A DNA stretch of 64,000 bases from a virus: IMG/VR virus record IMGVR_UViG_3300045988_151163, positions 10,857 through 74,856 of that record. One strand, given 5' to 3'. Position numbers and translations under genes: made by a program. Within the stretch, counting starts at the first letter, position 1, and each line of letters begins with the position of its first letter. The notes beneath the pieces are model-generated. The model made no database searches and was not told the DNA's origin. It saw only the letters and a program-made list of their open reading frames with translations. Positions 13,201 to 53,036 of this stretch are shown here, one piece after another.

Positions 13201-16200
13201 AATATCTTTAGCTTCTGAGTATTTTTTACCAGATAAAGTTCTATTCTGATATGATATAATAGGTTCACTAGAAATAATGATATTTTCTTTATTGGCTTCA
13301 ATTTTACCTAAATCTAAAACATATTGTTGATTTAATTGGCCTCTTTGTTCTAGTATTTCATCAGACTCAATTTCTCTGCCGTATGAATAAAGTTTTTGCT
13401 TAAAATTAACAAAGATATTCCAAATATCAACATAATTTTTTTCCACATCATTTCCGCTTACATACTCTGTAATATTCACATAGTATCCACCTAATGTGTC
13501 TAATAACTTTTGATATTCTTCTTCTTGTTTTGCTAATTCAGCCAAATTTTCATTCTCAACTACATTTTTTAATTTAGCAGTAAAATCACTGTAATTAGTT
13601 GTAACTGTTTTATTTTTAATACTTTGATTAAAAGTATTAAAAGCATCAATAGAGCTTTGTAAAACGTTAATGTCTTTTCTAATAATAGTTCTAATGCCAT
13701 TACCATATAAAGTTGAAATTCTAGAGAAAACATCTTCAAATAAAGAAGATATAGATTCAATGTCATTTCCATCATTATATCCAATACCATAAACACTTGT
13801 CTTAGTATTTAAAACAGATATAATAATATTATTTATAATATTTAATTCATTATAAATAAAAGTATCTGCACTCTTAGAGCTGCCTATTTTAATTCCATTA
13901 GAAAGAGTTAACTCACTCATATTAGATTGAGCTGAGACATCTCTATCTAAGTTATTTATTGCGTTAATAATATTTTGTAATGCATCTATACATTCACTTC
14001 TTTTTTGAAGTTCCTCTTTACTCTGTTTAAGTAAGTATTCTATCTGATAAAGGTTACATGCTTTTAAAAATAATTCTAAATTACTATAAATTGAATTGTT
14101 CTTATCTAAAGCTTTTTGTAATTCCTCTTTCTCAGAAGTAATTTTACTTAATTTATCTTTTAATATCTTATTCTCAATATCGACTTTTACTTTAATATAA
14201 TTATAAAAATCTCCAGATTGGAAAAGAGGATTTGGTTTTGCAACAGGACACTCATTATCTTCAGAAACAGATATTTCATGTATAGTCATATTCTTATCTA
14301 AAAAGATATTACTATTTGCACTCCAAGAATAATTACATTCTTTACTATCCACTCCAATCAAATTACTTTCACATCTAAAATTCTCTGTATCATCATATTG
14401 AGGATTATTTCCCGCTGAAGTATATAATACATTATAAAAGCCACCTTCAAGTGATGGAACAAAAGATTTAAAACTTCCATCAGAAGCAAAATCCGTTTGT
14501 GGCTTTTTGATTCTAGTAATTTCAATAGGATAATCATAGTAGATATGTAAATCATTATTATAGATATTATTTAAGTCATCTGTACTTTGATCCGCAGTTG
14601 CTTTTAAATTAGATAATGAAATATTTGCCTGTACGATTATATAAGGGACATTATTTTCATTAGTCCATTGACTTAATTTATTTTTATCACTATTTGTAGG
14701 GATAATATAACAAGAGCTAGCGTCACTATCTGATATAGCGAAAGGACAAAAATATTTGTTTTCTTTCCATCCTAAGCCTTGTTTTTCTCCACTATCAAAG
14801 ATATTCCAAGATACATTAGCTTGACCTGTTTGAGAAGAAGCACTTGTATTTATCTCTTCTCCATCTTTATAGACTTTGACATTTAATCTATATAAATCAC
14901 CTTTAATATGTGAATAGTTATTGTTTGATAAAGAATAACATTTCTTTAAAGTATTACTAACTAAATCATAGATATACCAATCAATAGTACCATCATTATC
15001 TTCTACTGCAACGAAACGCATTTTTACAGGATGCTCATTACCATTATCATCAACATAAATATCTCCATAGCGATATTCCGTATCTCCAATTTTATAGGTA
15101 ACAAAAGCAGTATATTTAGTACCATTAGTTCCATTCTCACCATCTTTTGAGAATCTAATAGGCACATCTTCATATAATACTGTATTACCAAAAATAATGG
15201 TTAAACTTGAAAGACTCTGCGCGGACTTCGCGTTATAGCGGCTAGCAAGCTTGTACTGTAGACTCCTATTAGCGCCATTCCCGCGTATATAATAATAATT
15301 ATCGTCTTTTGTTATAGCAGAAGTATTATCTTGATTTATACTTTCAAAATAAACCAAATTAGGCTTTAATAAACTGTTGATTGGAACTTTCCAAACCCAA
15401 CTAACTCTATCATATTCAGCCTTAGAGATCTCTTCACCGGTGGCCGCGCTTATAATACTAAATTCAACAGGTTTAATCTCCAATTTCTGCAAACTTAAAC
15501 CATCATAATTATCACTATCTGGTGCGTCACCATCTGCATCATAGTTATAATTTACATTAGCATTATCTAAAACGACTAAGAAATCTTGCCCTTCTTTTGT
15601 TCTTATACTGATTTGTTTTGTTTCAATAGGATAAGCAGTAATTGAACCAGACGCTTGCTTCTTATTAGTATAAACGTAGACCTTAAAAATATTCATGTCT
15701 GATGTTAATGAACTTACAGGAAAACTAATTTTAGTAGTATAAATGCCATCAGTAATATTCTTATCGTTTAAAGCTATGATACTATAAAAATCGTCTTGAC
15801 TAATGATTCGACCTTGCTGGTCAATTTGCTCCCATACGTAATTTAACTCTTCATCACGAACTACATTATTATATAAATTAGGATAATTTACTTCACAAGT
15901 TAAAGTTACATTACCTACGTTTTCGAGATAAGTATTATTTTCTTTATCTGCATATAAATTAACTTCTTTAATTAAAGAATATAAATTACTTATGGTTAAC
16001 TCTCCATAGACCCATAATTGACCTTCATTAGTACCAACATAACATCTAATTTTAGATTTGTGTTTAATATCTTGATTTGAGATCGTCACCGAACCCGCTG
16101 TTGTATTAAAAACAAAAGAGCTATCATTCTGTGCTTCACCTAAAACCTCTGTTCTAGAATTTAAACATCTCCAATTCACGCCCGCAGAACGATGATAATA

Positions 16201-17367
16201 CTTACTTGTCTCATTTACTGTTGGATCTTCGATAAACCAATAAACAGGCATTTTAGCATAAGAAGTCTCAAGTCCATTTAGAAATACCTTCAAATTGATT
16301 TTCTTTTCTTCAATAGAGGAAACATCTTGATTAGCAAAAAAAGGTCCATTCTCTGCTGTTAATACAACTTTATATCCGCCTTCAACTGTTTCAATATCTT
16401 CACAAACAGTTAATTGAATATCTTTTAATATAATATCAGCCCAAACATTTTTATCTGTTTTAGCTGGATCTTGCGGGAACCCATCAACAAAAGCAGTAAC
16501 TTTAATGCTTCTCTTTTTATCAAAAACAATTTCGTCTCCAAAATTAAGAACTAAATAATTAGTTTGATTAGACCAATTTGTTAATTCATATGGATTACCA
16601 TTAAAAACCTTAGAATCTAAATAAAATTCTTGAATGTCATCTTTTAAAATTCCATCTGCATTCTTTCTGCGGATTGGGATCTCAACCTTAATTCCATAAG
16701 AACCAGAAATCCTTTGTTCTTTTGCAATAGAGGTTTTAACATTCATATTTAATTTTAAGATATTATATCCACTATCAAAATATCCTTTTAATAAATCAGA
16801 CAAATCATATGGAACAATATCATTTATATCTATAGTTTCATCTTGATAAGATGCAAACTTAATTAAATTATAATTATTAAAAAGATTTTGACTTACTTCA
16901 ATTCTTTTTACTGTTTCTGCTGTTGTTTTATCTTCTCCAACCACTGTAACAGAAGGTGTTACAGAGTTTAAAATAACAAGAGGATTATCAAAATCTCCTC
17001 TTGGAACTAACACTAACACATGGTCACCAACTGAATAACTAGGCGTACTTGCATGCGCTTGCAATTTATCATTTTCTAAATATTTTACTCTATAGGTCGC
17101 GGTTCCTTGGTCCACTATCTCCATGACTTCCATCTCATAAGAAACATCACTTTGAACTGCGGATGCCGCGTTCTCTGACACTGAAGCTACAGCATCATAA
17201 ATTGAATTGGAGATATAGTCTGCTCCCTTATTCAATGAAGTATTGGAAGCTGCTTTAGTAAAATTCTCTTTTACTGTAGAATCAACTTGAAACTTAGTGT
17301 AGTCTGTTGCCAATACTCTTTCCTCCTTTTTCTCTTCTTTATTAGAATATGAAAAATTAAATCTCAT
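10264..17367 (-). CDS. giant tail protein (about 2368 aa): central coiled coil and four C-terminal about 65-aa repeats with G-x-I-(A/G)-(N/G)-W-T-(I/L) motif
   Basis: start placed at ATG 17365-17367 (MRFNFSY), 9 nt downstream of TATAAT of promoter 17377..17405; motifs GHIANWTLD, GHIANWTID, GTIGGWTIS, GQIGGWTIT. Confidence 0.55.
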   Translation of the reverse strand: MRFNFSYSNKEEKKEERVLATDYTKFQVDSTVKENFTKAASNTSLNKGADYISNSIYDAVASVSENAASAVQSDVSYEMEVMEIVDQGTATYRVKYLENDKLQAHASTPSYSVGDHVLVLVPRGDFDNPLVILNSVTPSVTVVGEDKTTAETVKRIEVSQNLFNNYNLIKFASYQDETIDINDIVPYDLSDLLKGYFDSGYNILKLNMNVKTSIAKEQRISGSYGIKVEIPIRRKNADGILKDDIQEFYLDSKVFNGNPYELTNWSNQTNYLVLNFGDEIVFDKKRSIKVTAFVDGFPQDPAKTDKNVWADIILKDIQLTVCEDIETVEGGYKVVLTAENGPFFANQDVSSIEEKKINLKVFLNGLETSYAKMPVYWFIEDPTVNETSKYYHRSAGVNWRCLNSRTEVLGEAQNDSSFVFNTTAGSVTISNQDIKHKSKIRCYVGTNEGQLWVYGELTISNLYSLIKEVNLYADKENNTYLENVGNVTLTCEVNYPNLYNNVVRDEELNYVWEQIDQQGRIISQDDFYSIIALNDKNITDGIYTTKISFPVSSLTSDMNIFKVYVYTNKKQASGSITAYPIETKQISIRTKEGQDFLVVLDNANVNYNYDADGDAPDSDNYDGLSLQKLEIKPVEFSIISAATGEEISKAEYDRVSWVWKVPINSLLKPNLVYFESINQDNTSAITKDDNYYYIRGNGANRSLQYKLASRYNAKSAQSLSSLTIIFGNTVLYEDVPIRFSKDGENGTNGTKYTAFVTYKIGDTEYRYGDIYVDDNGNEHPVKMRFVAVEDNDGTIDWYIYDLVSNTLKKCYSLSNNNYSHIKGDLYRLNVKVYKDGEEINTSASSQTGQANVSWNIFDSGEKQGLGWKENKYFCPFAISDSDASSCYIIPTNSDKNKLSQWTNENNVPYIIVQANISLSNLKATADQSTDDLNNIYNNDLHIYYDYPIEITRIKKPQTDFASDGSFKSFVPSLEGGFYNVLYTSAGNNPQYDDTENFRCESNLIGVDSKECNYSWSANSNIFLDKNMTIHEISVSEDNECPVAKPNPLFQSGDFYNYIKVKVDIENKILKDKLSKITSEKEELQKALDKNNSIYSNLELFLKACNLYQIEYLLKQSKEELQKRSECIDALQNIINAINNLDRDVSAQSNMSELTLSNGIKIGSSKSADTFIYNELNIINNIIISVLNTKTSVYGIGYNDGNDIESISSLFEDVFSRISTLYGNGIRTIIRKDINVLQSSIDAFNTFNQSIKNKTVTTNYSDFTAKLKNVVENENLAELAKQEEEYQKLLDTLGGYYVNITEYVSGNDVEKNYVDIWNIFVNFKQKLYSYGREIESDEILEQRGQLNQQYVLDLGKIEANKENIIISSEPIISYQNRTLSGKKYSEAKDIVQKRYEELTANENDNCSKEIAKIKANKDFTDEEKGKEIAVIRQHYAILTREKTLEKDNILKTLADDVKNTKIKSINSITEKYNTDLLKTYENSYLVPLQYLQEKYSTKTSELNTDIKNKNKEIADLNIGIESSQESVIIIRPINMKCNSYEIPGLNNWDGKKYYLSNNGEYMFCPQIGAGVKTNNNTFTGMFMGARTSVNRSMVSETENDLNLRNKDIGLFGYSQGIQSIFLDAKTGSAFMGMPGQGQIVISPNQAFASIYSGNYYKYDSKRKGYYSKKDGSFISEIDFNNLKTQEERDNYSSGQGMLINLTDGAIKSSYWNVNSEGKSTFTSGVIGGWEIGENTLSSVIKNNAQLVLDSGNSVGLTDANGPENRSPKIYSSDNTRKPHDTLDSMQPGFYLGSDGFSIGNTFKVSIQPSTGLRTQGTGILEVGNLSGAHWIIGQNLKGTSFIGHGASYLISKSFVNQSTDQSENNSSSVYIGTDGLSFGHNLELSAEGSLKIGSFKKNATTSDHFLVLEVDKKDISNASLRYNTDGIHDFKNNSLYVGTQGIRLGKESSKKNNRGVFEVESNGILWATAGHIANWTLDEYQLLSTNTVVIDGVTKPGLVLDSKKGYIAFIKEDFNKTGKGFYLGNEGLSLGDSFWVDRTGELLATKGHIANWTIDKDSIYVKSGDIKIFDIHPMTSGGYISYNTSGWNSSKLLDSTSGCFYLGTTGISLGPNPSPFRVNNLGELWSTRGTIGGWTISNSTLKGGSVTLNSNGSIIGSGWSFSTAGVLTCNDAIIGGVHFKTGSGEANWSGGQMTSGQIGGWTITTSSIYDTASGGGNIKFDTSGDFNILTDGESGIKGTGGDISMKGTTRVTASSGSNKMEITNTSGSLRVGSFGLSINASETSLSGSSKLRLSGGTELYLSSPKAIFNASGENIMIGSSTSLKNYIESVVNTVLKSKTIDFKTNTVYTGETEGHKHTYTKVVSATIS

Positions 17368-17376
17368 TCTTATTCT

Positions 17377-17417
17377 ATTATAACCAAAAATAGCGGAGAG
17401 GTCAAGTCCTCTCCGCA
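17377..17417 (-). promoter_or_regulatory. terminator hairpin after the tape measure protein (GCGGAGAGG/CCTCTCCGC + T-run) whose loop/stem carries the -35 (TTGACC-17-TATAAT) of the giant tail gene promoter
   Basis: read on minus strand. Confidence 0.5.
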
Positions 17418-17426
17418 TAATTTCTG

Positions 17427-20400
17427 TTATTTTCTAATTCCGTTCTTTTGTGCTGCAATATTTTTAAGATTAAGTAAAGCTTGTTCAATTTCTGCCGCAT
17501 TGTTAGCATTAGGGAATTCTGCAACAATGTTATAAACATTATTTTCTTCTTTATTGCTACCTGTTGTTGTTGAAACAGTTTTTCCTTGACCAATTTCATT
17601 AGTCATACTAGAAAGTCTTTCTCCAACTACATCAGAAATAGCATTTTGAATTGAAGAAATAATATTTGGCATACTTCTAACAATTTTTACTGCATCTAAA
17701 ATATTTTCTGTATCAGAAGCATTTAATACAAGTTCTTTTTGATGTAAAATACCAAGTCTACCATTATCACTATCTAAGCCATCTCCTTGAGACATAGGCC
17801 AATTTCCTGTATAACCACCAGTTTTTGCTCTAAAACGATAGCCTTTCTTTTGATCTCTGGTGGAAGCAGCAACTGTATAATTAGTATATTTTCTTTTACC
17901 TTCAAGTGTTTTCGCTCTAGCTATTAGCGTTGCAATTTGCCGACCCGCAGAATCTCTTGATGCATAAGCTGTATCATCTTCAACCATAATATTTCCGTCT
18001 CCACTATTATTAACAATCCAATATTTCATTTTATTATTGGATAAACTAGCAGTGGTTGATGTTGTTCCATCATATCCTCCACCTGAGCTACCGCCGCCTC
18101 CAGAACTACCAGATCCAGAATAACTATAATCTCCATAATTTGTTGCACTACTAAAAGTAGTTTGACTAGCAGTTGCCGCAGCTTGCATCAGAGATAAATA
18201 CTGTTGAATATTGTTAATAGCATCTTTGATAGATTGAACCACACCCTCCCAAGCAGTTTTAACTTGATCAACACTATTTCTTAAATTCTCTAATTGAGAA
18301 CTACTATCTGAAGCAAGTTCAGCAGTCTTATTCTTCAAATTATCTGTCTCATCTTCTGCTCCTCTAATCGCGCCTGATATACCATCTGGTCCAAAATCTT
18401 GTCCAGCTTTATCGGCAGTGTCTGAAACTTGTTCTTCATATTTTTGAGTTGCTTCAATTAACTTATCATTTGCATCTGTAACCATAGCTTTCACGCTAGA
18501 GCCATCATCGCCAGCCCATTTCTCAATCATTTGATCTGCGGCTGCATCCCAGATACCTTTACCTTCAACAAGAGAAGATTCAATACTATCTACAATACCG
18601 TTCATATTATCTCTAACAGCATCATATATGCTATTAAAATCACTGATATTGTTATCTGTAGCTTCTTTAATTAATCTCTGCTGTTCTGATGTCATAGATG
18701 CATAAGCTTCTTCATCTTGCTTGTAGATCTCAAGAGTCAAACCTAATTGAGCTTCTTGCAATCCAGACTTCGCGGTTGCCGCCTCACTGGCATATCCCAT
18801 CGACATTTCTTGGTACCATTTATCCAGATCTGCCATCTCTTGACTGTCCGCGCCGTATTTTTCAAGATACTCTTTTTTCTTAGATAAGTATTCTTGATCT
18901 AATTTTAATAAGTTTTCAATATTAGATTGATATGCTGTTTTAGATAACTCATAAAGTTCTTTATAAGAATCTAATAACGCTTGACGCTTACTAGCAACGT
19001 CGTCTTCATCTGCAACATATTGATAAGTCCAGTTACCTTCTTGATTTCTAGTAACTTTCATTGTATTTTTACTATTTTGAGCATCTTCTAAAGCAATTTC
19101 TTTTTGAAGAATATCAAATCTAGCATTTGCTGCATCAATATCATATTGAGTTAATTGTTTCTTTTCTCTTAAAGCTTTAAGCTCTTTTTCTTGGAACTCT
19201 AACAATTTCTGTTTAGCTTTTACACTCTTGGTGTCTGTAATAGCTTGATCGACATTAGCTTTAAAAATTTCTGTATTATAAGCTTTTTCTGTTGCATCCA
19301 TATACAAGTCTGCGGATTCTTTTAATCTATCCCATTGATCTTGCATATAGTCAAGTGTTGTTCCACCAGTTATTTTTTTCTCAAGAGTATCAATAGTAGA
19401 AGAAATAGTGTTTTGATATTGGTCTTTAATAAGATTTATTCTATCAAGTACTGCGTCATTTAAGTCTTGTTCACAATCACGCATCTTTTCATATGCTTCT
19501 TGATAAGCTTCACTTTCTTCTCCATAAGATTGTTTCGCGGCTTCAGCTTGTTCTGCCCAGAACTCCTTCTGCTGTCTCAAAGATTCGATTTGAGCGCCGC
19601 TATTATTGATTTGAGCAGAATATAATTGGTCCATCATATCATATGCTTCTTCTCCATAGATTAACTCTATAAGTTCAGCTTGATATTCAAGATTGTCATT
19701 TATTCTATCAAATTCATCCATTAAGTCTTCAAACTTATCTGCAGCTTGATCAATACCATCCATATAAGCATCCCAAGCATCTTGGAACAAATCTTTCATA
19801 TCTTTAGCATGATCCATCAAATCGCTTTGAAGTTCTTTAAGTCTGTCTTGAGCCTGAGAAATTGTTTCAAACATACCAGAATAACCCGTAGTATGTAAAT
19901 TCATAATTTCTCTTTCAACTACTCCTATAGCAGCTAGATCCGCGGCAATCGTACCATTATCACCTTGATATGTACTAAATGAAGCTACTATGTTTTTGCT
20001 CTTTTTACCAAGATCTTCATATACCTTAGTGAAATCTTCTTCCATTTCCGCCAAGAAGTCTTGCATATCTCTTTCAGCTTCAGAAAAATCAAGTTTAATT
20101 TTATAATCTTCTTCAAATATAGCTAAAGTATTTTCTCTTTGTTTCTTTTCTTCTTCTGCAATCGCATCAGCGACATCTTTCATTTCATCATATAATAAAG
20201 TATCATATCTTTCAATTTGTTTCTTAAAATCTTCATATTTTTGTTTGGCTATATCCATACCAGCTTCATCTAAAGAGCCTGCATTATATGCACTAACAGC
20301 TGCATTATAAGCATTTATTTGAGCTTGATATGCTGCTTCATAGTTAGTGATCTCACCAGTATCTTTAAATGCAACTCCAAAAGATTTAAGTCTGCCTTGT

Positions 20401-23400
20401 ACTTCTTGTGCTTCTTGAATTTGAAGTTTTTGTTTTTCCTTTTGTTTATCAATCTGTTGGTCTAATAATTTATTCTCTTCTTGTAAACTTTCAATAAGCT
20501 GTTTTCCGGACATTGTGCTTTGCTTATCTTCAAGTTTATCAAGTTCATCATTAATAGCTTCAAGAGCTTTATTAACAGACCAATATCTATCTACTTTGTC
20601 GTCAGTAAATTCTTCTTCTTTTTTAGAAGAAGAGCTTCCTCCGCCTCCACCTTTAGATGCGCCTGCTGACATACTCTTACCAAGATTTGCTCTAACATTG
20701 CCAATAGCAGCAAGTTTAGTAGATAAACTTTGCATAACAACTTTAGCTGCATCTTTATGCTTAAAGATACCATCTAATCCTGGAATTTCAGCTAATTGAT
20801 TAGCTAAATTAGCTGCATCAACTGTAGCACTTTGCATTTGCATAGCTAAATTATATACAGCTGTTTGTGCAGCACTCATTTTTTGCGCGCTGGAAGTAGC
20901 TGCATTTCCAGTTAATTCTTCTGCTAAAGCCAAATCATCATTAGCCAATCTTGCTAATTGAGACATAGCTTCATCAACAGCTTTAACCTCTGCTAAATCT
21001 AATTGCGCATTTGCCAATGTTTCTAATTGGCTTTGATTCATAGACATTTGTCCATTTTGAATCTGTAAAGCAGCTAAATACTGGTCATCCATATTTAGAA
21101 GAGTATTAAGATTATCAATAGTTAAGAATCCATTTTCATTATATGAATCCATTATGCTATTAAGAGAATTATATGCACCTTGAATGCTACTTAATTCTCC
21201 TGTGATATCACTCATTTCTTCTTTAGCTTTTTCATGCACAGCAGTCCAAACTTCTACTTGATCAACATTGTCTTCAGTAGAATTGTTTAAATCATTTTGT
21301 GCTTTATTTAAACCGTTTGAAACATTAGTTAAGTCTTCTCCTTCATCAATAGCATCTTTCCATGCTTTAATTTGATCTTTATTAACACCTATTGTTTCTG
21401 AAACAATATCTATTGCATTTTTTTCTTCATCTGTTAAACTATCAAATCCATCTTCTTTTAATTTTTCTATTGCTGAAGTAGCTTTTTCAATATCATCAAC
21501 ATTTAAAAAAGAATCTAATCCAGGAAAACTTTCTATTTCTTCTTTTATGTTTCCAAGGGCACCTTCTAATGTTTTAAAATTTTCTATTGCAGTTGAATAA
21601 GTTTTGTCAACAGAGCCAGAGTAATCTACAGAAGAACCTTCTCCCCTTTTGATAGTACCTTCTTGGGTTTTTTCATAGCCAGTATAGCTATAACTCGTCA
21701 TTCCTTCAACTTGACTTTGAGTAGTTAATGATTCATTATTAGCTTTAGCTTCTGCATTAACTCTATCTTCAATAGCTTGAGTTAACTCTTTTTCTTTTTC
21801 TATTCTTATATCATAAAAAATTTTTAATTGAGCAATTTGTTCTGATGAATCTAATTTTTCAAAATCTTCTTGAGTGCCAAAATAATCTTGAATACCTTGA
21901 TCGGCGAATAAACTATCAATTTGTTCTTGAGTTAACTCGCCATCTTCTAAATTCTCAAGAACGCCACCCGCAACAGTAGCAGAACTTCTAACCTCGGCTA
22001 GTACAGAAAAATCACCTAAACCATCTATTTGTTTCTGAAGATTTTCTCCTGCATCTTCTGGTAAAACTAAATCAATATTATCAAGAATAGCTTTTGCATC
22101 TGAATCAGATATGCTTGCCATTATATCTTGAACAGTTTTTTCTGCATATCCTTTTTCTATCAATGCTCTAGATGCTTCATATTTAGAAGAATATTGTAAT
22201 AAAGCATCATTTCTAGCTGTCAAATATGTAATGGCATACTGTCTTGCATCTTCTATAGCTTTTTTATTTTCTTCTTTGCTGTAATCTTCTCCTTCGACGC
22301 CTTCTTCTTTTTTCCACCCATAAGTTGATCTTGTTTTTTCTACAATAGCAGAAATACCTTTTTGATAATCTGTATATGAAACATCTTTAGAACCTAAATT
22401 CTTATTATTAAAAACTTCATTTGCAGAATTTTCTCTTTCTGCTGTTTTTCCTTTTGTCTCTGCGTCTTCCCAATTCGTAATAGCAGTTGAAATGGTTTCT
22501 GAATTTAACAATTCTGAAATTTGCTTAGAAGCCATTGAAGGATTTTCATTCAGAATTTTTACTAATTCTGCATTATTTTCTGTTGCAACTTTAGTTAAAC
22601 TTTCTACAGTAATATGATTACTATCAGTAAATCTGATACCTAATTTATCTAATTCTTGAGCCAATTTCTTTTCGCTATCATTTCTACTCATCATACCTTG
22701 TAGATCTAAAGTATCTTGACCTTGACCAACTCTATCAATTCTAGCACCAGCTTCTTTAACTATATTGGCACTAATAGAAGCAGTCTGTTTTTCTTTTTCT
22801 TCAGAAGTAGCTTCTTGTATATCTACATTGCTATCAGTTTGAACTTGCTTTATAATATTATCTAATTCTTCATAATCCGCGGTAAGCGCTTGTACTGCCG
22901 CACTCTGAATACCGTGTTGCTGACAAAGTAAATAAACTTGTTGTCTAAAAGCTTCTAAGTTATTTTTCTTATATTGCTCTTTTAATGATTCGTAACTAGA
23001 AACTAATTCATTAACAGATTCTTTTTGTTCTTCCGTTGCTAATGTAACTTCATGAGCTGCATTTGCTGCATTTTCTGCTGCCTTTGCATCTTCTTCAACT
23101 GCTTTTTTGTGAGCTTTGTAAAGTGCAATACCTCCAATTACTGCTGCGGTTACGAGAGCCATAGCTCCACTAACTATGCCTATAGCAAGTCCTAAAGAAT
23201 GTGTTGCTGCTTGATTTTTAATTTTTTCTATTGTATTTAATTTTGTTACAGCAGTATTAGCTGTTGTAGCTACTGTTGCTTTTGCTTCAATTCTTGCAGA
23301 TAAACTTAAAACCGCATTTTTTACTTTTTCAGCTGCTGTTTCAGCCAAAGTTGCAATTCTATTTGATTCTTTTACAGCAATAAAAGTCTCATAAACGCTA

Positions 23401-26087
23401 ATCAATGAAGGAATTATCATGGCTAATGACATAAAAGATTGTTCCACTTTTTCTGTTAAAGTTAAATCATCATTTGAAAAAATATTTCCTAAATTTCTAA
23501 TTTGATTTATTGCCATTGCTAATTGACCAAGAGAACCTACAACCTGTCCAATTTGTTGCATCGTGGTTTTTTGATTAAAAGCTTTAACCAATTCTTCTCG
23601 AAAAGAAATCAATCCTTTTTCAGTTTTTTGAATTTGCCCTTGCATTTGTTCAAGACCAGCTAAGTTTCCAGCTTGTGTTCTTGCTTCTTTAAAAACATTT
23701 TCTAGTACATCATCAAGAGCTTTTCCTTGTCGTGCTGCTTCTTTAGCTCTTTCTGCTAAATTATTAAAAAAATTATCAACCTCTGCTTGAGGTAAATCTA
23801 ATTCTTGAATATTAGATATAAAATCTTTATCTTGTTTTATTTTAGAAATTTTAGCGTCAATAGCTGATTCTTTAGCTTGAGTATCTAATTCTTTAAAATC
23901 TTCTTTTAAAGCTTTTAAATCAATAGTGGTAATTTTATCATCAACTTCTTTAATTATAGTTGAAATTTGAGACCACTTATCTTTAAAAGCATCTCCTGAT
24001 TTCATAATTTCTTTAATACTTGGTAATACTCGTTCATCAGTTTTTATTAAATTGCTCATTGCATCTTCTATCTGATTATTTCCAAAAGCATCAGTAGTCA
24101 TTGAAGTGCCGAGATTTTCACCCTCTATTGTATTAGCTATTTTTAAAAAGGTGTTTATTTTTTCTAAATCTTTAGATCTTCTTTCAGTAGAAGCTTCTAA
24201 TGATGTATCTATATCTAATAAACCTATTAAATTATTTTTTTGTTTAGTAATAGCTTCAACTTGTTCACTATATTTAACAGTCATTTCAGCTTGAGCAACA
24301 ATTTTTTTATTTAATAAATTTATTTGTTTTTCGTCTTCTGCTGTTAAGTATTTATTATTTTCAATTAAATATTGATTATTAGCTTTTAATTGAGCAGTAG
24401 CATCTGCAACGGCTTTCCCGCCCATGCTTTCTGGATTTTGAATATATGCATTTTGAGCAATTTCATTAAATTGATCTAAAGCAGGCATAGAATTCTTTAA
24501 TGCTTCTAAATTAGTTCTTGTATCTTTAATATTATTTGCAATATTAAGAATACTTTCACTAATTTTCCCACTAAAAGTCTTCAGCATTAAAGGAGCAACA
24601 AAAGACAGTATACCCTTTAAACCACCTGCTGTTTTAACAAAATTATCTACAACTTCTAATAACTTAGTAGCATCTTCAGTTAAGTCTTTAATACCTTCTG
24701 TATCAAATAAATCTTGATAAATTGTTTCAGCAGTTGCTCTTAATATTTCAAGCTTTTTATTTAAAGACTCCAAAGCAATATCTTGCTGTTCTTGCAACGT
24801 ACCAGCAGCATTTTGAGATACAGCTAGAGTATCTTGATACATACTCCAGTTATTAAATAATGCAGTTAAATTATTATACTGTCTTTTACCTGCCATAGCT
24901 ACTGCAATAGCTTGACGCTGAGCTTCCGTCCATCCTTGCCATTTCTCAGCAACCTCTTCCATTACAGTACCCATTTCTCTTAAGTTGCCTGTTTCATCCA
25001 GAACTCTAATACCAACAGACTCAAGAGTACCGGATACTTCACCAAGAGTAGTACCAAATTCATCAACGCCATCAACTTGTAAGTCGCCCATACGAGCATA
25101 AATTGTTTTAAGAGCAGTACCAACAGATTCTGGTGCTTGTCTTGTTACAGAAACAATAGTAGCAACTTGGGCAGATAACTGATCAATATTAACACCCATC
25201 ATAGACGCGGATGACGCTACTTTAGACATAGCTGTAGCCAGCTCTTCCAGATCTGATGCAGTTGCCGCACCTACTGCCGCCAACTTATCTACATATTCTT
25301 CATATATACCGAAGCCCTTTTCTGCGGCTTCGTTTGCTACGTTGTAACCATTCCATACAGCTGTGAGTTGCTCAGACACTTCCGCCATAGATTGACCTGT
25401 TACATTAGCTGTCTTTGCAGTAATATCAGTTAAAGCTTTAACTGTATCATCATCAAGACCCTGTTGGTAATAAATCAAAGCTCCTTCAGTGTAATCTCTT
25501 GTTGAAACAGCAAGCGCTTTTGCGGCTTCATTCGCGTCTTTTGAGAAATCTCTCATTTGATCAGCCGACTGTCCAGTTACAATTCTAATATCATTTAAAG
25601 CAGTATCAAGATTTTTAATATAACCATAAGCTTGTTGAGTGCTACTAAGCATTTGATTCCATAAACCAGAGCTCAATCCCCACTTAACAGTATTTTTCAT
25701 GGTTTGAGCCATTTCGTCAACTAGTTTATTAGTTCTTTTAACTACACTACCCATCTGAGTAAATGTATTGGTTAAATTTAAGAAAGCTTTTTGACCTGAA
25801 GTCCCTGCATTTAATAAATTTTTGCTTATTGTTTGAATATCAGTACCATTTTGTTTTAATACTTTATTAAACTTTTCAAAATTAACTGTATTGATATTTG
25901 GATTATAAGCCTTTTCAAGTGCAAGTTCAATTTGATCTATGGATTTTAATATTTCTGAAGTATCCATATTTAATGGATGTTCAAAAACAGTAAATTCTTT
26001 TCTAACTTCATTTAAACTTTGCTTTAATTCATTAACACCTTTTAAATCTGCTATTGTCCGCAGTTTAAAATCTATTGTGTTAGCCAT
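17427..26087 (-). CDS. tail tape measure protein (2886 aa)
   Basis: very long, mostly helical/coiled-coil ORF with Gly/Ser linkers (GGGGGSSSSKKEEE, GSGSSGGGGSSGGG) directly upstream of tail tip genes; AAGGAGG SD. Confidence 0.8.
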   Translation of the reverse strand: MANTIDFKLRTIADLKGVNELKQSLNEVRKEFTVFEHPLNMDTSEILKSIDQIELALEKAYNPNINTVNFEKFNKVLKQNGTDIQTISKNLLNAGTSGQKAFLNLTNTFTQMGSVVKRTNKLVDEMAQTMKNTVKWGLSSGLWNQMLSSTQQAYGYIKNLDTALNDIRIVTGQSADQMRDFSKDANEAAKALAVSTRDYTEGALIYYQQGLDDDTVKALTDITAKTANVTGQSMAEVSEQLTAVWNGYNVANEAAEKGFGIYEEYVDKLAAVGAATASDLEELATAMSKVASSASMMGVNIDQLSAQVATIVSVTRQAPESVGTALKTIYARMGDLQVDGVDEFGTTLGEVSGTLESVGIRVLDETGNLREMGTVMEEVAEKWQGWTEAQRQAIAVAMAGKRQYNNLTALFNNWSMYQDTLAVSQNAAGTLQEQQDIALESLNKKLEILRATAETIYQDLFDTEGIKDLTEDATKLLEVVDNFVKTAGGLKGILSFVAPLMLKTFSGKISESILNIANNIKDTRTNLEALKNSMPALDQFNEIAQNAYIQNPESMGGKAVADATAQLKANNQYLIENNKYLTAEDEKQINLLNKKIVAQAEMTVKYSEQVEAITKQKNNLIGLLDIDTSLEASTERRSKDLEKINTFLKIANTIEGENLGTSMTTDAFGNNQIEDAMSNLIKTDERVLPSIKEIMKSGDAFKDKWSQISTIIKEVDDKITTIDLKALKEDFKELDTQAKESAIDAKISKIKQDKDFISNIQELDLPQAEVDNFFNNLAERAKEAARQGKALDDVLENVFKEARTQAGNLAGLEQMQGQIQKTEKGLISFREELVKAFNQKTTMQQIGQVVGSLGQLAMAINQIRNLGNIFSNDDLTLTEKVEQSFMSLAMIIPSLISVYETFIAVKESNRIATLAETAAEKVKNAVLSLSARIEAKATVATTANTAVTKLNTIEKIKNQAATHSLGLAIGIVSGAMALVTAAVIGGIALYKAHKKAVEEDAKAAENAANAAHEVTLATEEQKESVNELVSSYESLKEQYKKNNLEAFRQQVYLLCQQHGIQSAAVQALTADYEELDNIIKQVQTDSNVDIQEATSEEKEKQTASISANIVKEAGARIDRVGQGQDTLDLQGMMSRNDSEKKLAQELDKLGIRFTDSNHITVESLTKVATENNAELVKILNENPSMASKQISELLNSETISTAITNWEDAETKGKTAERENSANEVFNNKNLGSKDVSYTDYQKGISAIVEKTRSTYGWKKEEGVEGEDYSKEENKKAIEDARQYAITYLTARNDALLQYSSKYEASRALIEKGYAEKTVQDIMASISDSDAKAILDNIDLVLPEDAGENLQKQIDGLGDFSVLAEVRSSATVAGGVLENLEDGELTQEQIDSLFADQGIQDYFGTQEDFEKLDSSEQIAQLKIFYDIRIEKEKELTQAIEDRVNAEAKANNESLTTQSQVEGMTSYSYTGYEKTQEGTIKRGEGSSVDYSGSVDKTYSTAIENFKTLEGALGNIKEEIESFPGLDSFLNVDDIEKATSAIEKLKEDGFDSLTDEEKNAIDIVSETIGVNKDQIKAWKDAIDEGEDLTNVSNGLNKAQNDLNNSTEDNVDQVEVWTAVHEKAKEEMSDITGELSSIQGAYNSLNSIMDSYNENGFLTIDNLNTLLNMDDQYLAALQIQNGQMSMNQSQLETLANAQLDLAEVKAVDEAMSQLARLANDDLALAEELTGNAATSSAQKMSAAQTAVYNLAMQMQSATVDAANLANQLAEIPGLDGIFKHKDAAKVVMQSLSTKLAAIGNVRANLGKSMSAGASKGGGGGSSSSKKEEEFTDDKVDRYWSVNKALEAINDELDKLEDKQSTMSGKQLIESLQEENKLLDQQIDKQKEKQKLQIQEAQEVQGRLKSFGVAFKDTGEITNYEAAYQAQINAYNAAVSAYNAGSLDEAGMDIAKQKYEDFKKQIERYDTLLYDEMKDVADAIAEEEKKQRENTLAIFEEDYKIKLDFSEAERDMQDFLAEMEEDFTKVYEDLGKKSKNIVASFSTYQGDNGTIAADLAAIGVVEREIMNLHTTGYSGMFETISQAQDRLKELQSDLMDHAKDMKDLFQDAWDAYMDGIDQAADKFEDLMDEFDRINDNLEYQAELIELIYGEEAYDMMDQLYSAQINNSGAQIESLRQQKEFWAEQAEAAKQSYGEESEAYQEAYEKMRDCEQDLNDAVLDRINLIKDQYQNTISSTIDTLEKKITGGTTLDYMQDQWDRLKESADLYMDATEKAYNTEIFKANVDQAITDTKSVKAKQKLLEFQEKELKALREKKQLTQYDIDAANARFDILQKEIALEDAQNSKNTMKVTRNQEGNWTYQYVADEDDVASKRQALLDSYKELYELSKTAYQSNIENLLKLDQEYLSKKKEYLEKYGADSQEMADLDKWYQEMSMGYASEAATAKSGLQEAQLGLTLEIYKQDEEAYASMTSEQQRLIKEATDNNISDFNSIYDAVRDNMNGIVDSIESSLVEGKGIWDAAADQMIEKWAGDDGSSVKAMVTDANDKLIEATQKYEEQVSDTADKAGQDFGPDGISGAIRGAEDETDNLKNKTAELASDSSSQLENLRNSVDQVKTAWEGVVQSIKDAINNIQQYLSLMQAAATASQTTFSSATNYGDYSYSGSGSSGGGGSSGGGYDGTTSTTASLSNNKMKYWIVNNSGDGNIMVEDDTAYASRDSAGRQIATLIARAKTLEGKRKYTNYTVAASTRDQKKGYRFRAKTGGYTGNWPMSQGDGLDSDNGRLGILHQKELVLNASDTENILDAVKIVRSMPNIISSIQNAISDVVGERLSSMTNEIGQGKTVSTTTGSNKEENNVYNIVAEFPNANNAAEIEQALLNLKNIAAQKNGIRK

Positions 26088-41338: not shown

Positions 41339-42424
41339 TTACTTTTTGTTTCTACAAGATTTACAAATAGAATACCATCCATCTCTACTTGTCTTATTCT
41401 TTGCAAAAAAGTAGCTGTGACCTAATTTAATTTGACCGCATCTTGAACATCTTTTCCAATATCCTTTTTCTTCTTCGGTATAGTGCCAAATGAGCCAATC
41501 CATTTTAGCTTGTTCAGATAACATTTTAGGGATTTTATTTCGCCAAAGGGAAGAAATATATTCAACAGAATGTTTAATTTCAAATTCTTCGTATAATAGA
41601 TCTTGAATTTCTGCGTTTTGTTTACCATCTATTTTATATATTACTAATTTATAATATAAAGGGAATTTTTCTTTAAAAGTTCTTTCTACTAAATCATCTA
41701 AATCAACCATCATCCATCTTAAATCACTTCCAAAATTTTCATATGTTTCCTCTTTTATTTTTGAGTAATTGCATAACAAGAGAGAAACATGAAAAGGATT
41801 GATTAAAGTAATTAGACCATCGCTATAAATCTCACCTGTATCTGGGTCAATCTGGATTTTTTCCTGTAAATTTACCCGGGATATTGATTTAACTAAATTT
41901 GTGCTATACATTGGTCTGCGATAGACCTCTTTTAAAACATATTGGTCTTTTCTCATTTCAATGAGTTGTTTTTTTAAGAGATACGCGCGCTTGCCAGTAG
42001 CTGTACTAGCCTGCTTCTCTATTCGCTCTATACTCTCGCGAAGTTCTCTCAAACCGGGCACTTCCGCAATATCTTGCTCAGTAATTTCATATTTAGGTCT
42101 ATAAATAATATTCTTATCATTAGCAATCATATTATAGATGCCATCTTCGCCATTTTCAAGTTTTCCAATAAGTCCTTCAAAAGATGTCTCTCTATCATTA
42201 ACTGTTTTCATTCTGTTATCTGTTAATAATGAACTTTTTTCACCTTGTTTATTTTGCTTTCTATCTTCTTTATTTGCTGCTAATATTATATAATCTGCTA
42301 ATTTTTCTAGATATGTTGAGTTCAATCTTTCAGGAGGAGTATTGGCTATTATTTTTTTGACATGCTCTGTTCGCTCTTGTGATGATTCAAGCGAAAAGTC
42401 CATTTTTATGTAATTTTGTTCCAT
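41339..42424 (-). CDS. hypothetical protein with C-terminal Zn ribbon (first gene of leftward operon)
   Basis: CSRCGQ...CKSCRNKK; AGAAAGGAG SD; driven by promoter 42453..42481. Confidence 0.3.
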   Translation of the reverse strand: MEQNYIKMDFSLESSQERTEHVKKIIANTPPERLNSTYLEKLADYIILAANKEDRKQNKQGEKSSLLTDNRMKTVNDRETSFEGLIGKLENGEDGIYNMIANDKNIIYRPKYEITEQDIAEVPGLRELRESIERIEKQASTATGKRAYLLKKQLIEMRKDQYVLKEVYRRPMYSTNLVKSISRVNLQEKIQIDPDTGEIYSDGLITLINPFHVSLLLCNYSKIKEETYENFGSDLRWMMVDLDDLVERTFKEKFPLYYKLVIYKIDGKQNAEIQDLLYEEFEIKHSVEYISSLWRNKIPKMLSEQAKMDWLIWHYTEEEKGYWKRCSRCGQIKLGHSYFFAKNKTSRDGWYSICKSCRNKK

Positions 42425-42452: not shown

Positions 42453-42481
42453 ATTATACCAAAATTTTTCAGCCTTGTCAA
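42453..42481 (-). promoter_or_regulatory. sigma-A-type promoter of the leftward packaging/structural operon (TTGACA-17-TGGTATAAT), back-to-back with the plus-strand early promoter
   Basis: rc reads TTGACAAGGCTGAAAAATTTTGGTATAAT. Confidence 0.55.
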
Positions 42482-42551
42482 TATTTAATTGGAATTATTA
42501 AAAATTTTATGTTATAATAATTATAATAAATAGAATAAGGAGAGTAAAAAT

Positions 42552-42842
42552 ATGATTGATATTGATAAAATAGCGCGTATACAAAAACGCACTAAAAAAA
42601 GATTTCTTAGGCAACAAAAGAAGTATATTAAAATTATAAACAAAGCAATAAAGTACAATACCAAACATGGTAAAAGTTACATAGAAGTATCTTTATCAGA
42701 ACCTTTTATTATTGTTAATCCAAATTTTATAAATAAAATTATAAAATTATATGAAGGGCTAGGTTTTAAGGTTGAAAAATATAATAAGGGTTATTCTGGA
42801 GAATACCTTTTAATAAAATGGAAAAAAATGGAGGACTTTTAA
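42552..42842 (+). CDS. hypothetical basic protein (96 aa)
   Basis: ORF with AAGGAGAG SD. Confidence 0.5.
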   Translation: MIDIDKIARIQKRTKKRFLRQQKKYIKIINKAIKYNTKHGKSYIEVSLSEPFIIVNPNFINKIIKLYEGLGFKVEKYNKGYSGEYLLIKWKKMEDF

Positions 42843-42993
42843 TGAGATTAAGGAAAAATTTCATGCCTAAACCTAGTACAATAATTAAGAAAGGTATCCA
42901 TCAAGCCATATGGGAGGACATGATTTAGATAGATGTGGAGAAAAATATTTTGGTTATAAAAAGGATAAGAAAGGAGTGCGCTAAGCTGTCTTA

Positions 42994-43248
42994 GTGGCAG
43001 CCATCAAGCGCGATTGCCGCATGAAAAAGTTTAAGATTGATGCTCCTGTTGACTATGTAATGGGACATTTAAAATATGGACATTATGAAGGAGAAGTTGA
43101 AATTCCAGAGGAAGATGAAGAAAATTTTTTAAAGTCTCCTTTAGATTATTTAAACAATAATGATTTGGTAGAGTCATTAGATTTTAAAGTTGATGTTGAA
43201 ATCGAAGATTGTGGAGATATATATGAAGTAAATTATGAGGAGGTATAG
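42994..43248 (+). CDS. hypothetical acidic protein (84 aa; alternative start 43021)
   Basis: ORF; AAAGGAG 14 nt upstream. Confidence 0.45.
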   Translation: MAAIKRDCRMKKFKIDAPVDYVMGHLKYGHYEGEVEIPEEDEENFLKSPLDYLNNNDLVESLDFKVDVEIEDCGDIYEVNYEEV

Positions 43249-43250
43249 CA

Positions 43251-44129
43251 ATGCCAGCACATGATGATTTAGGAACTAGAATGAAAACTTTCTATGAAAA
43301 CGCATCTAAAACTTACCTTATGCACAGATGTCCTGTTGCCATTAGGCTAGATGGCCGCGCTTTCCATACTTTTACAAAAGGATTTCAGAAACCTTTTGAT
43401 GAAATATTGATGAAGTCAATGCAAAAAACTATGCAGTATCTTTGTAAGAATATCCAAGGATGCGTTTTTGGATATACTCAGTCAGATGAGATTACTCTTA
43501 TATTAGTAGATTATAAAAATTTAACCAGCACTGCGTGGTTTGATTATGACGTACAGAAAGTATGTAGTATTGCTGCAAGTATGGCTACGATGATATTTAA
43601 CAAGTATTTTTATGATAATGTATTTATGTACAATGCGACTGCTGCTGTTGATTTATCCAATAAAAAATATCCATTTAAAGAAGTATATTCTAAAGCAGTA
43701 AATAAAGGTGCAATGTTTGACGCAAGATGCTTTAATATACCAAAAGAAGAAGTAGCTAATTTAATTTATTGGCGGCAGTTGGATGCTATACGGAATTCAG
43801 TCCAGGCAACCGGACAAGCAAACTTTAGCCATAAAGAGCTACAAGGCAAATCTTGCGCAGACATAAAAGAAATGCTTAAAGAAAAAGGCGTTGATTGGAA
43901 TAGTCTTCCTTTAGAGTTTCAAAGAGGCTCTTGTTGTGTAAGAAATGCTGTTGCCATAAAAAAAGAACAAGTTATTTTCCCTAGTGGGAAAAAGATGATT
44001 AGATCTATTATAGAACTTAGAGATACATCCAAGCCAGAAAAAGCTTGGATTATAGATAAAGAAATCCCTATATTTAAAGGAAAAGATAGAAAGTATATTG
44101 AAGATTTAATTTTTATTGAGGAGGAATAA
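43251..44129 (+). CDS. Thg1-like protein (tRNA-His guanylyltransferase family 3'-5' nucleotidyltransferase)
   Basis: VAIRLDGRAFHTFTKGFQKPFDE and GYTQSDEITLIL match Thg1 catalytic palm motifs (compare human VVVRLDGRNFHRF...AKPND and AYGQSDEYSFVF); WRQLD matches the Thg1 WRQ.D. Confidence 0.8.
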   Translation: MPAHDDLGTRMKTFYENASKTYLMHRCPVAIRLDGRAFHTFTKGFQKPFDEILMKSMQKTMQYLCKNIQGCVFGYTQSDEITLILVDYKNLTSTAWFDYDVQKVCSIAASMATMIFNKYFYDNVFMYNATAAVDLSNKKYPFKEVYSKAVNKGAMFDARCFNIPKEEVANLIYWRQLDAIRNSVQATGQANFSHKELQGKSCADIKEMLKEKGVDWNSLPLEFQRGSCCVRNAVAIKKEQVIFPSGKKMIRSIIELRDTSKPEKAWIIDKEIPIFKGKDRKYIEDLIFIEEE

Positions 44130-44130
44130 T

Positions 44131-44382
44131 ATGAAAATTTACAATATGCCTAGAGGATCTGGAAAGACGAGATATTTAGCAAGCCTAAATATGCCCATTA
44201 TTGTATCTACTAAAGCAATGAAAAATGAAACTGAGTTACAGGGTGCTAAAGAAGTATATACAGTAAAAGAATTTTTAAAATTAAAGAAAAAGCCTAGTAT
44301 TGTATGTGTCGATGAGTTGGAATTAGTATTGGGAAGATTGCTAGATTGTTGTATTGATTCAGCAACTATTACAGAAAGGTAA
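44131..44382 (+). CDS. mini P-loop NTPase-like protein (83 aa)
   Basis: Walker A MPRGSGKTRYL and Walker B-like IVCVDELE; start overlaps Thg1-like stop (GAGGAGGAATAATATG). Confidence 0.45.
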   Translation: MKIYNMPRGSGKTRYLASLNMPIIVSTKAMKNETELQGAKEVYTVKEFLKLKKKPSIVCVDELELVLGRLLDCCIDSATITER

Positions 44383-44671
44383 TAATTTTGGATCAGTTAA
44401 AAACAAATACCGAAAAAGCCTATAAAAACTGACTCATATAGAGGAATAATAAACAAGATTTATGCTTATGCTTGTCCTACATGTGGAAAAATGGATGAAT
44501 GAACGTCAGGAAACAATGTATTGTTGGAATTGCGGTCAAAGATTACAATGGTGAGATTCCGTCTTTTGAAATCAAAATAACTTTTGGAGAGGGAATTGTC
44601 GAGGAAAGTTAGGCTAGACTAACTCGCCAAATTTGACCCCGAAATATGCCCGCCCATGATACCTCAGATTC

Positions 44672-44700
44672 ATTATACCATACTATGTGTAGTTTGTCAA
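44672..44700 (-). promoter_or_regulatory. isolated minus-strand consensus promoter (antisense to upstream region)
   Basis: rc TTGACA-17-TGGTATAAT; no minus ORF downstream. Confidence 0.45.
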
Positions 44701-44825
44701 GCACTAATTTTTACATAATCATTGGTTAGGCGGGGCAAACACTTTAGTGCGTTAAAGCATTGAAGCGCGCAAGAAAATGATAAAAAGAAGTAAAGAAAAT
44801 GATAAAAATTTTTTTACAAAAACAC

Positions 44826-44854
44826 TTGACAAATGAATCAAAAAGGCTTATAAT
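44826..44854 (+). promoter_or_regulatory. early promoter TTGACA-17-TATAAT (gene 44905)
   Basis: exact consensus hexamers, 17-nt spacer. Confidence 0.6.
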
Positions 44855-44904
44855 GTGTACATAAGGTAAAGGAAAGGAAGCCAAAAGGCTAAAGGTAAAA
44901 AGTT

Positions 44905-45141
44905 ATGGAGTTCAGAATGTATCAGAATATTGAGGGCGTTGAATTTGAGGTTATGGGTGACAAGGTTCTCTTTCACACAGAGGACGAGGCACAGGTCACA
45001 GGACTTGAGTATTTCGCAGAAAAGCACAATGTGTCGATCGAAGTCCGTGAGGATGGCTGGACAGAGGTTTTTGGTGATACAACTTCACTTTTCTACTTCG
45101 TTTGCGGTTTGGGTAGAATGACAATCAATAACAACTTGTAG
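44905..45141 (+). CDS. hypothetical protein (78 aa), higher-GC early gene
   Basis: own promoter 44826..44854; conserved leader shared with 45700 gene. Confidence 0.55.
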   Translation: MEFRMYQNIEGVEFEVMGDKVLFHTEDEAQVTGLEYFAEKHNVSIEVREDGWTEVFGDTTSLFYFVCGLGRMTINNNL

Positions 45142-45264: not shown

Positions 45265-45293
45265 TTGACAATCAATAACAAAAGGCTTATAAT
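45265..45293 (+). promoter_or_regulatory. early promoter (gene 45327)
   Basis: TTGACA-17-TATAAT. Confidence 0.6.
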
Positions 45294-47838: not shown

Positions 47839-47907
47839 AGGGATAGTAGGCTAAATGGCAAACCGCTAATGCGCATAGAAACAAGAGTTCGATTCTCTTC
47901 TATCTCA
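47839..47907 (+). ncRNA. tRNA-like fragment (acceptor GGGATAG/CTATCTC + T arm AAGAG-TTCGATT-CTCTT, degenerate D/anticodon arms)
   Basis: canonical T-loop and 7-bp acceptor pairing but no foldable anticodon arm. Confidence 0.3.
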
Positions 47908-52783: not shown

Positions 52784-52921
52784 GGGGATGTAGCTCAGTG
52801 GTAGAGCGGTGGCTCGTTAAGCCACGTCACATTGATGATACCCCTCTAAAAGCACTTTTGACTTAATCAACCAAGGGTGGGCGTTAGAGACGGGGCGAGA
52901 GTTCGATTCTCTCCATTCCCA
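52784..52921 (+). tRNA. aberrant tRNA-like gene: canonical acceptor, D, anticodon (loop UCGUUAA, GUU=Asn, C at position 33) and T arms, but a 71-nt insertion at the variable-loop position (52826..52896)
   Basis: GGGGATG/CATTCCC acceptor pairing, D arm GCTCAGTGGTAGAGC, anticodon stem GTGGC/GCCAC, T arm GAGAG-TTCGATT-CTCTC; driven by promoter 52742..52770. Confidence 0.45.
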
Positions 52922-52930
52922 ATTAAAAAT

Positions 52931-53002
52931 AGGCGTGTGGCTCAATGGAAAAGCAACGGTCTCCAAAACCGCGATTTACAGGTTCAAATCCTGTCGCGCC
53001 TG
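52931..53002 (+). tRNA. tRNA-Trp (CCA)
   Basis: acceptor AGGCGTG/CGCGCCT, anticodon arm CGGT-CTCCAAA-ACCG, T arm ACAGG-TTCAAAT-CCTGT; GGTCTCCAAAACC is typical of tRNA-Trp. Confidence 0.75.
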
Positions 53003-53036
53003 CTAATACAGTAAAAGATTGTTACCTCCTTTCCTT

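Follow-up and report, generated by a model that had tools for sequence, protein, structure and literature searches.

What is known of Thg1-like proteins (TLPs) and their mechanism is drawn here from three papers (PMC3701042, PMC4820378, PMC6471195), the last of which, a review of the family from 2019, makes no mention of phages. A role in tRNA modification or repair had nonetheless been guessed in phage papers of 2013, 2018, and 2021 (PMC3601020, PMC6292376, PMC7824862); the 2018 paper, on a Bacillus megaterium phage, repeated the guess, and the 2021 survey of jumbo phages by Iyer and colleagues counted Thg1, RlaP, and the CCA-adding enzyme among the phage enzymes that put lost nucleotides back onto damaged tRNAs. 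Here, we describe a TLP gene (43251..44129, + strand) on a stretch of viral DNA of 64,000 nucleotides, hereafter the window, which covers positions 10,857 to 74,856 of IMG/VR virus record IMGVR_UViG_3300045988_151163. Its product resembled the bacterial enzyme BtTLP of Bacillus thuringiensis much more closely than eukaryotic Thg1, all of its catalytically important residues were present, and in related phages the gene recurrently had RNA-repair-type genes as neighbors. On balance, we favor a role in which the enzyme restores host or phage tRNAs that have been shortened at the 5' end, as part of a phage kit for RNA repair and counter-defense.

The gene is an ATG-to-stop open reading frame (ORF) of 292 codons for amino acids, assigned from the ORF list and from profile and structure matches. 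Its product matched the Pfam profile PF04446 (Thg1) over profile positions 3 to 130 of 130, with an E value of 2.9e-29 and 102 bits against a gathering score of 29.2, so the membership in the Thg1/TLP family that an earlier note had read from the letters alone was borne out. It also matched PHROG 4717 (“tRNA-His guanylyltransferase”; E=4.5e-82), while the C-terminal domain Thg1C fell below threshold (18.9 bits versus 26.3) and no NCBIfam model matched the protein. Among solved structures, the best relative by a wide margin was BtTLP (4KGK; E=1e-52, residues 5 to 232), followed by an archaeal TLP (5axk; E=2.8e-13) and by eukaryotic Thg1 of human, Candida, and others (3.7e-10 to 3e-06), closeness to TLP or Thg1 being judged here from E values and not from phylogeny. 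We infer a polymerase-like palm fold from the sequence match to the solved 4kgk; an AlphaFold2 model built from a shallow alignment (35 close homologues) had a mean predicted local distance difference test score (pLDDT) of 48.5 and a predicted template modeling score (pTM) of 0.28.

The motifs and the catalytic acidic pair quoted in the earlier note were all present: VAIRLDGRAFHTF at residues 29 to 41, FQKPFDE at 45 to 51, GYTQSDEITLIL at 74 to 85, and WRQLD at 174 to 178, with D79/E80 aligning to D75/E76 of BtTLP and D76/E77 of human THG1. Residue roles were taken from the BtTLP structure paper (PMC3701042) and transferred through the 4kgk alignment. The metal-binding and third carboxylates (D30, D75, and E76 in BtTLP; D29, D76, and E77 in human THG1) correspond to D34, D79, and E80 of the window protein; the residues for 5'-end activation (BtTLP K43, S74, and N154; human K43, S74, and N158) to K47, S78, and N182; those for nucleotidyl transfer (BtTLP R28, K99, and R131; human R27, K95, and R130) to R32, K103, and R159; and the structurally important E12 and R147 of BtTLP to E16 and R175, where the correspondence of BtTLP N154 and K99 to human THG1 is our own reading of the alignment. 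All eleven catalytically important residues (E16, R32, D34, K47, S78, D79, E80, K103, R159, R175, and N182) were therefore present, and they were invariant or nearly so across 35 homologues of 67 to 93% identity. The three carboxylates were invariant in that alignment and were found in 104 of 106 members of its clade; the 11-residue signature, allowing K or R at position 47, was intact in 100 of the 106. By this conservation, the protein appears catalytically intact, and 3'-5' nucleotide addition would be its expected activity. Two homologues, in the related loci numbered L048 and L097 (genes at approximately 10001 to 10890), carry D79N, joined in L097 by D34N, and may be inactive or changed in function.

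The eukaryote-specific anticodon motif HINNLYN, whose H154 stacks on anticodon base G36 of tRNA-His (PMC6471195), was absent from the window protein in the structure alignment. Its position was occupied by WRQLDAIRNSVQ, where BtTLP has WRQQDASKNSIS and human THG1 has WRQADCHINNLYN. Because HINNLYN is missing and a BtTLP-like segment stands in its place, the protein is, as far as its sequence tells, a TLP of bacterial type rather than a true tRNA-His guanylyltransferase. Compared with BtTLP, it carries insertions at about residues 118 to 155 and about 230 to 265; across the clade, the length ran from 12 to 65 residues in the first of these segments (117 to 156) and from 3 to 38 in the second, and these differences mark both as lineage-variable loops.

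The company that the gene keeps in other phages was surveyed in 105 TLP-bearing loci, forming 72 clusters at 95% TLP identity, by clustering all ORFs in 10-kb neighborhoods and naming them with Pfam. The recurrent neighbors were an RNA ligase (PF09414 with a PHA02142 OB domain), RlaP or an RlaP-like Pol-beta nucleotidyltransferase (NTase), a calcineurin-like phosphoesterase, and a microbial PARG or macro domain protein. At least one RNA-repair-type gene lay within 10 kb of the TLP gene in 34 of the 105 loci and 26 of the 72 clusters; by cluster, the Pol-beta NTase or RlaP was found in 19, the metallophosphoesterase in 15, the RNA ligase in 9, and PARG or macro in 5. All such genes (66 of 66) shared the strand of the TLP. 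Bona fide RlaP (PF10127, 53 to 80 bits, the form of about 345 amino acids), which lengthens the 3' end of a damaged tRNA by one or two nucleotides so that ligation restores function (PMC12776372), directly abuts the TLP gene in L006, L011, and L098 and lies 1.2 kb downstream of it in L064. In L017 and L103, TLP, NTase, phosphoesterase, and ligase occur in one run, with PARG added in L103, which hints at ADP-ribose removal from RNA within the same toolkit. Compact co-oriented cassettes joining the TLP to a Pol-beta NTase or RlaP, a metallophosphoesterase, an Rnl-type ligase with the PHA02142 OB domain, and at times PARG or macro were seen at L017:3412-9928, L103:9500-17322, L011:6800-12670, and L028:191-2891. 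The density of repair-type genes was 3.6 times higher within 3 kb of the TLP gene than at 3 to 10 kb (42 versus 24; binomial p=5e-7), a statistic tempered by the fact that it ignores the relatedness of the loci and has no independent background set.

In that regard, the phage of the window carries one candidate partner. A Pol-beta NTase of 260 amino acids is encoded approximately 4.5 kb past the right end of the window and approximately 23 kb downstream of the TLP gene (L031:13457-14239 and L030:14511-15293); it matched phrog_388 (E=2.8e-14) and was homologous to the TLP-linked NTases of other phages (tblastn E=2.6e-29), with a score below the Pfam threshold for RlaP. A gene for an SprT-like protease lies 1.1 kb upstream of it. 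In a search of the window and of loci L030, L031, and L032 with seed proteins for ligase, metallophosphoesterase, and PARG, only this Pol-beta NTase was found, and ligases of the T4 Rnl1/Rnl2 or RtcB type, detectable only through Pfam annotation, did not appear there.

Under the role that we favor, the TLP would take an RNA end with a 5'-monophosphate and activate it with ATP or GTP, or start directly from a 5'-triphosphate, and would add nucleotides in the 3'-to-5' direction by Watson-Crick pairing with the opposite strand. Missing 5' nucleotides of a tRNA acceptor stem would in this way be rebuilt on the template of the 3' strand, whatever the anticodon, and during infection host or phage tRNAs would be kept functional after 5'-terminal loss. 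The NTase encoded 23 kb downstream may be a companion tool in the same kit, and a TLP working at the 5' end would complement RlaP working at the 3' end. The earlier note had likewise proposed that tRNA 5' ends are repaired, perhaps to counter a host nuclease; the RlaP, ligase, metallophosphoesterase, and PARG genes near relatives lend that part of its proposal indirect support, while its suggestion that the enzyme serves one particular phage RNA, at 52784, did not hold (see below).

Beyond the limits of the proximity statistic, several points weigh against this role. The TLP gene of this phage adjoins no repair gene; the approximately 95 kb inspected of the 140-kb contig that carries it yielded neither an RNA ligase nor a kinase/phosphatase nor a PARG; and 46 of the 72 clusters of relatives had no repair gene within 10 kb. 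No host immune nuclease that specifically makes 5'-truncated tRNAs is known from the literature searched, and those described as acting at the acceptor end attack its other side: retron Eco2 nicks the 3' strand, and Cas12a3 and HEPN-MNT remove the CCA tail (PMC12916289, PMC12851939). What bacterial TLPs do physiologically is itself unsettled (PMC6471195), and no experimental work on any phage TLP was found in the literature searched, which did not extend to subscription-only papers.

A more specific version, which we raise tentatively and regard as doubtful, has the TLP and RlaP working as partners in filling in a damaged tRNA from two sides, the TLP on the 5' side. Here, a host ribotoxin would cut nucleotides out of a base-paired stretch of the tRNA; of the two fragments, one would be lengthened at its 3' end by RlaP and the other, by template, at its 5' end by the TLP, and an Rnl-type ligase would seal the nick that remains. 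No description of the direct adjacency of TLP and RlaP genes in L006, L011, and L098 was found in the literature searched. If true, two-sided repair would give bacterial-type TLPs a defined counter-defense function and would predict undiscovered host immune nucleases that trim tRNA 5' ends.

It is rather unlikely, in our estimate, that the substrate is something other than tRNA, such that the enzyme would extend or activate phage transcripts or small RNAs at their 5' ends, repair other structured RNAs, or leave a cap-like adenylylated or guanylylated end. TLPs do accept a wider range of RNAs than Thg1, and Dictyostelium TLP4, the role of which is unknown, possibly acts on non-tRNA substrates (PMC6471195). 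The first reaction step forms an App-RNA or Gpp-RNA intermediate, and the lineage-variable segment at residues 117 to 156 could retune substrate binding. No positive evidence for such a substrate emerged, however, and the neighbors of the relatives (RlaP, Rnl-type ligase, and phosphoesterase) are the classic set for the repair of tRNA.

A true tRNA-His guanylyltransferase, adding G-1 to host or phage tRNA-His to let histidyl-tRNA synthetase recognize it, is an unlikely identity for the window protein. Most bacterial tRNA-His genes encode G-1 genomically, which counts against it. The family is named for that activity and both PHROG 4717 and JGI apply the label, yet HINNLYN, the reader of the GUG anticodon, is the very motif that is missing. 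Nor did a tRNA-His partner appear: none was found in the window or the adjoining loci, and His accounted for only 1 of the 47 tRNAs lying within 10 kb of the TLP in relatives, so a link to tRNA-His was rejected. BtTLP, the closest solved relative, can replace yeast Thg1, but the yeast complemented in this way had tRNA-His with a Watson-Crick-added U-1 rather than G-1 (PMC6471195).

The tRNA genes of the phage itself bear on a further alternative, which we consider quite unlikely, namely, that the TLP matures phage tRNAs by 5' completion or editing in the manner of Dictyostelium TLP3 (DdiTLP3) on mitochondrial tRNAs, for which that activity gives a precedent (PMC6471195). In the window, a tRNA gene and two tRNA-like genes share the rightward-transcribed region with the TLP. 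tRNA-Trp(CCA) at 52931-53003 (+), identified by both ARAGORN and Rfam, is the only canonical one; a 138-nt tRNA-like RNA at 52784-52921 (+; Rfam tRNA, 55 bits) and a 68-nt tRNA-like element at 47840-47907 (+; 40.2 bits) were missed by ARAGORN. The earlier note had placed the TLP next to a tRNA-carrying region; the tRNA genes are indeed there, although “next to” is loose, since they lie 3.7 to 8.8 kb downstream of the TLP gene. The 138-nt RNA forms a cloverleaf with a structured variable-region insert of approximately 67 nt (minimum free energy of -50 kcal/mol, z=-3.1), has a normal G1-C72 acceptor end, and has the anticodon loop UCGUUAA (GUU, with C33 replacing U33). It was found only in the two closest relatives (L033:19760-19895 and L030:1-95), and in the L033 copy the insert was almost invariant whereas the anticodon loop was different and one base shorter (AAGGUC), a pattern that suggests a tRNA-shaped noncoding RNA rather than a decoding tRNA. 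The 68-nt element has good acceptor and T arms and an anticodon stem of only 3 bp, and only its 3' part (26 nt) matches L033.

In all three of these RNAs, the 1:72 pair is intact and the acceptor stem fully paired, so none needs 5' completion and there is nothing to edit. In L008 and L012, the TLP gene has tRNA genes as its direct neighbors, but just 21 of the 105 loci had a tRNA within 10 kb of it and 84 had none, and the 138-nt RNA is limited to the closest relatives while the TLP is widespread, being present in hundreds of phages that lack this RNA. The link between TLP and tRNA genes is thus a loose one, no connection of the TLP to tRNA-Trp or to the 138-nt RNA emerged from these comparisons, and the idea in the earlier note that the enzyme serves the aberrant RNA at 52784 finds no footing. 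Finally, that the gene is a decaying or nonfunctional passenger, as the lack of adjoining repair genes in this phage and the D79N substitution in two relatives might be taken to suggest, is highly improbable given a full-length ORF with a strong ribosome-binding site, catalytic residues that are intact and invariant across the homologues of 67 to 93% identity, and a GC content (33.1%) that matches that of the window (32.0%).

In a tightly packed rightward run that is divergent from the structural genes, the TLP comes third. A Shine-Dalgarno sequence (GAGGAGG, 43237..43243, +, by direct reading of the sequence) stands 7 nt before its ATG. The run, made up of ORF96, ORF84, TLP, and ORF83, is headed by a candidate promoter at 42489..42518 (+; sigma-70-like TTGGAA-18-TATAAT with an upstream TG), and by consensus matches only it can reasonably be taken as an early operon read by the host polymerase. 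ORF96 (42552..42842, +) is its first gene; its resemblance to uS19 (21 bits against a cut-off of 139) was taken as chance. ORF84 (42994..43248, +) encodes a small acidic protein, stops 2 nt before the TLP start, and occupies the adjacent position in common only between the window and the closest relative L033. ORF83 (44131..44382, +; 83 amino acids) starts 1 nt after the TLP stop and encodes a mini P-loop-like protein (phrog_1828) with a Walker A-like GSGKT, a Walker B-like VCVDE, and a weak match to Viral_helicase1 (E=7.8e-4). Its homologues in other phages are 156 to 196 amino acids long, so the window copy may be truncated, and they sit at a distance of 5 to 9 kb from the TLP, which also disqualifies ORF83 as a conserved partner. 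All three were rejected as conserved partners of the TLP, being confined to the nearest relatives or located kilobases away elsewhere, and no conserved TLP neighborhood was found in phages FNU2, PMBT8, and BMBsp2.

Several promoters of perfect consensus lie in the kilobase after this one. Four perfect 12/12 sigma-70 consensus promoters (TTGACA-17-TATAAT) occur within 3 kb, at 44672-44700 (-), 44826-44854 (+), 45265-45293 (+), and 42453-42481 (-). The one at 44700-44672 (-) is directed back at the TLP operon's 3' end, has behind it no ORF reaching 40 amino acids, and could drive an antisense or small RNA. Divergent from the TLP operon and running off a perfect consensus promoter, a gene at 41339-42424 (-) encodes a 361-amino-acid protein whose match is to phrog_5767, a phage “sigma factor” family (E=2.7e-46), with approximately 45 C-terminal residues resembling zinc-ribbon or HNH/endonuclease VII segments.

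A protein identical to the window TLP is encoded on a metagenomic contig of 140,206 bp (ENA ERZ27260846), of which the window represents positions 43971-107970. The leftward half of the window encodes a terminase-like protein, a portal, a sigma-factor-like protein, and proteins whose Pfam domains bear the names of Bacillus SPbeta genes (YonB, YonD, and YonG), and farther to the left lie genes for a DNA polymerase III alpha subunit, NrdD, guanylate kinase, and dUTPase. The phage origin claimed in the earlier note is confirmed by the terminase-like protein, the portal, the sigma-factor-like protein, and the SPbeta-type structural proteins, and by its gene content the source is an SPbeta-like phage of approximately 140 kb. 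Two adjacent giant ORFs stand out in the structural module, at 10264-17418 (-; 2,384 amino acids) and 17427-26087 (-; 2,886 amino acids). Gut and rumen Clostridia, among them the isolates Robinsoniella peoriensis, Lacrimispora sp. HJ-01, and Clostridium sp. AM22-11AC, have relatives of the TLP at 45 to 61% identity in their genomes and metagenome bins, which hints that the host is probably a gut member of the Clostridia. No GenBank phage matched region 42500-45000 in a DNA-level search, and this phage is therefore without a close sequenced relative among them.

A Thg1-like gene in a phage is not rare, and the family has already been catalogued in phages. A translated search found homologues in 164 of 50,697 GenBank phage records, all below 60% identity to the query, in phages of Bacillus, Caulobacter, Mycobacterium, Erwinia, Fusobacterium, Staphylococcus, and other hosts as well as in the Lak megaphages of Prevotella; among the matches listed, most of these homologues were already labeled tRNA-His guanylyltransferase. 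At least 8,000 homologues at E≤1e-10 were present in a large protein database, and two short peptide patterns alone retrieved at least 492 IMG/VR viral contigs, mostly of 90 to 200 kb, making the gut and rumen Clostridia-phage clade abundant in metagenomes. Any rarity implied by the earlier note is thus contradicted by these numbers, and the functional guess itself had already been published for phages.

The value of the window gene lies instead in its use as a test case for the natural role of bacterial-type TLPs. Many host defenses are now being found to cut tRNAs, and phage TLPs beside RlaP, ligase, and phosphoesterase genes point to tRNA repair in the arms race between phage and host. If restoration of tRNA 5' ends does take place in vivo, templated 3'-5' fill-in would be a new step in phage counter-defense, and the existence of host nucleases directed at tRNA 5' ends would be implied. 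The adjacency of TLP and RlaP is a modest lead that makes the in vivo role of TLPs more approachable, and enzymes of this family are interesting, too, as tools for labeling or extending RNA at the 5' end.

Set against known systems, the window protein is most like BtTLP (PDB 4KGK/4KGM), with which it shares the carboxylates, the activation and transfer residues, E12 and R147, and WRQxDAxxNS in place of HINNLYN; it differs in being phage encoded and approximately 47 amino acids longer, through a 24-residue expansion at 118 to 155 and one of approximately 30 residues at 233 to 263. The phage TLPs of PHROG 4717 (gp143 of Bacillus phage Bc431v3, gp71 of Fusobacterium phage FNU2, and that of Staphylococcus phage PMBT8) are 37 to 44% identical to it, have been supposed in print to modify phage or host tRNAs, and likewise belong to large phages, where their neighbors are small early or middle genes of unknown function, whereas the window gene belongs to the gut and rumen Clostridia-phage clade with its longer insertions. 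Eukaryotic Thg1 (human THG1, 3OTB; Candida, 3WBZ) shares the palm-domain family and the catalytic carboxylates, but the match is weaker (E=3.7e-10 and 3e-06), and the window protein has neither HINNLYN nor a tRNA-His partner. Dictyostelium TLP3, shown in vivo to rebuild 5'-truncated tRNAs of many identities (PMC6471195), is the mechanistic model here, although it is an organelle enzyme for programmed truncations of mismatched tRNA genes and the window tRNAs have no 5' mismatches. Among RNA-repair cassettes (T4 Pnkp/Rnl1, RtcB/RtcA, and RlaP), the likeness is to the relatives, whose TLP is embedded with RlaP, Rnl-type ligase, metallophosphoesterase, and PARG or macro genes, whereas the window TLP stands alone, with a divergent Pol-beta NTase 23 kb off and outside the window and no ligase seen. 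From RlaP and the CCA-adding enzyme, finally, a TLP differs in acting at 5' ends and in needing a template.

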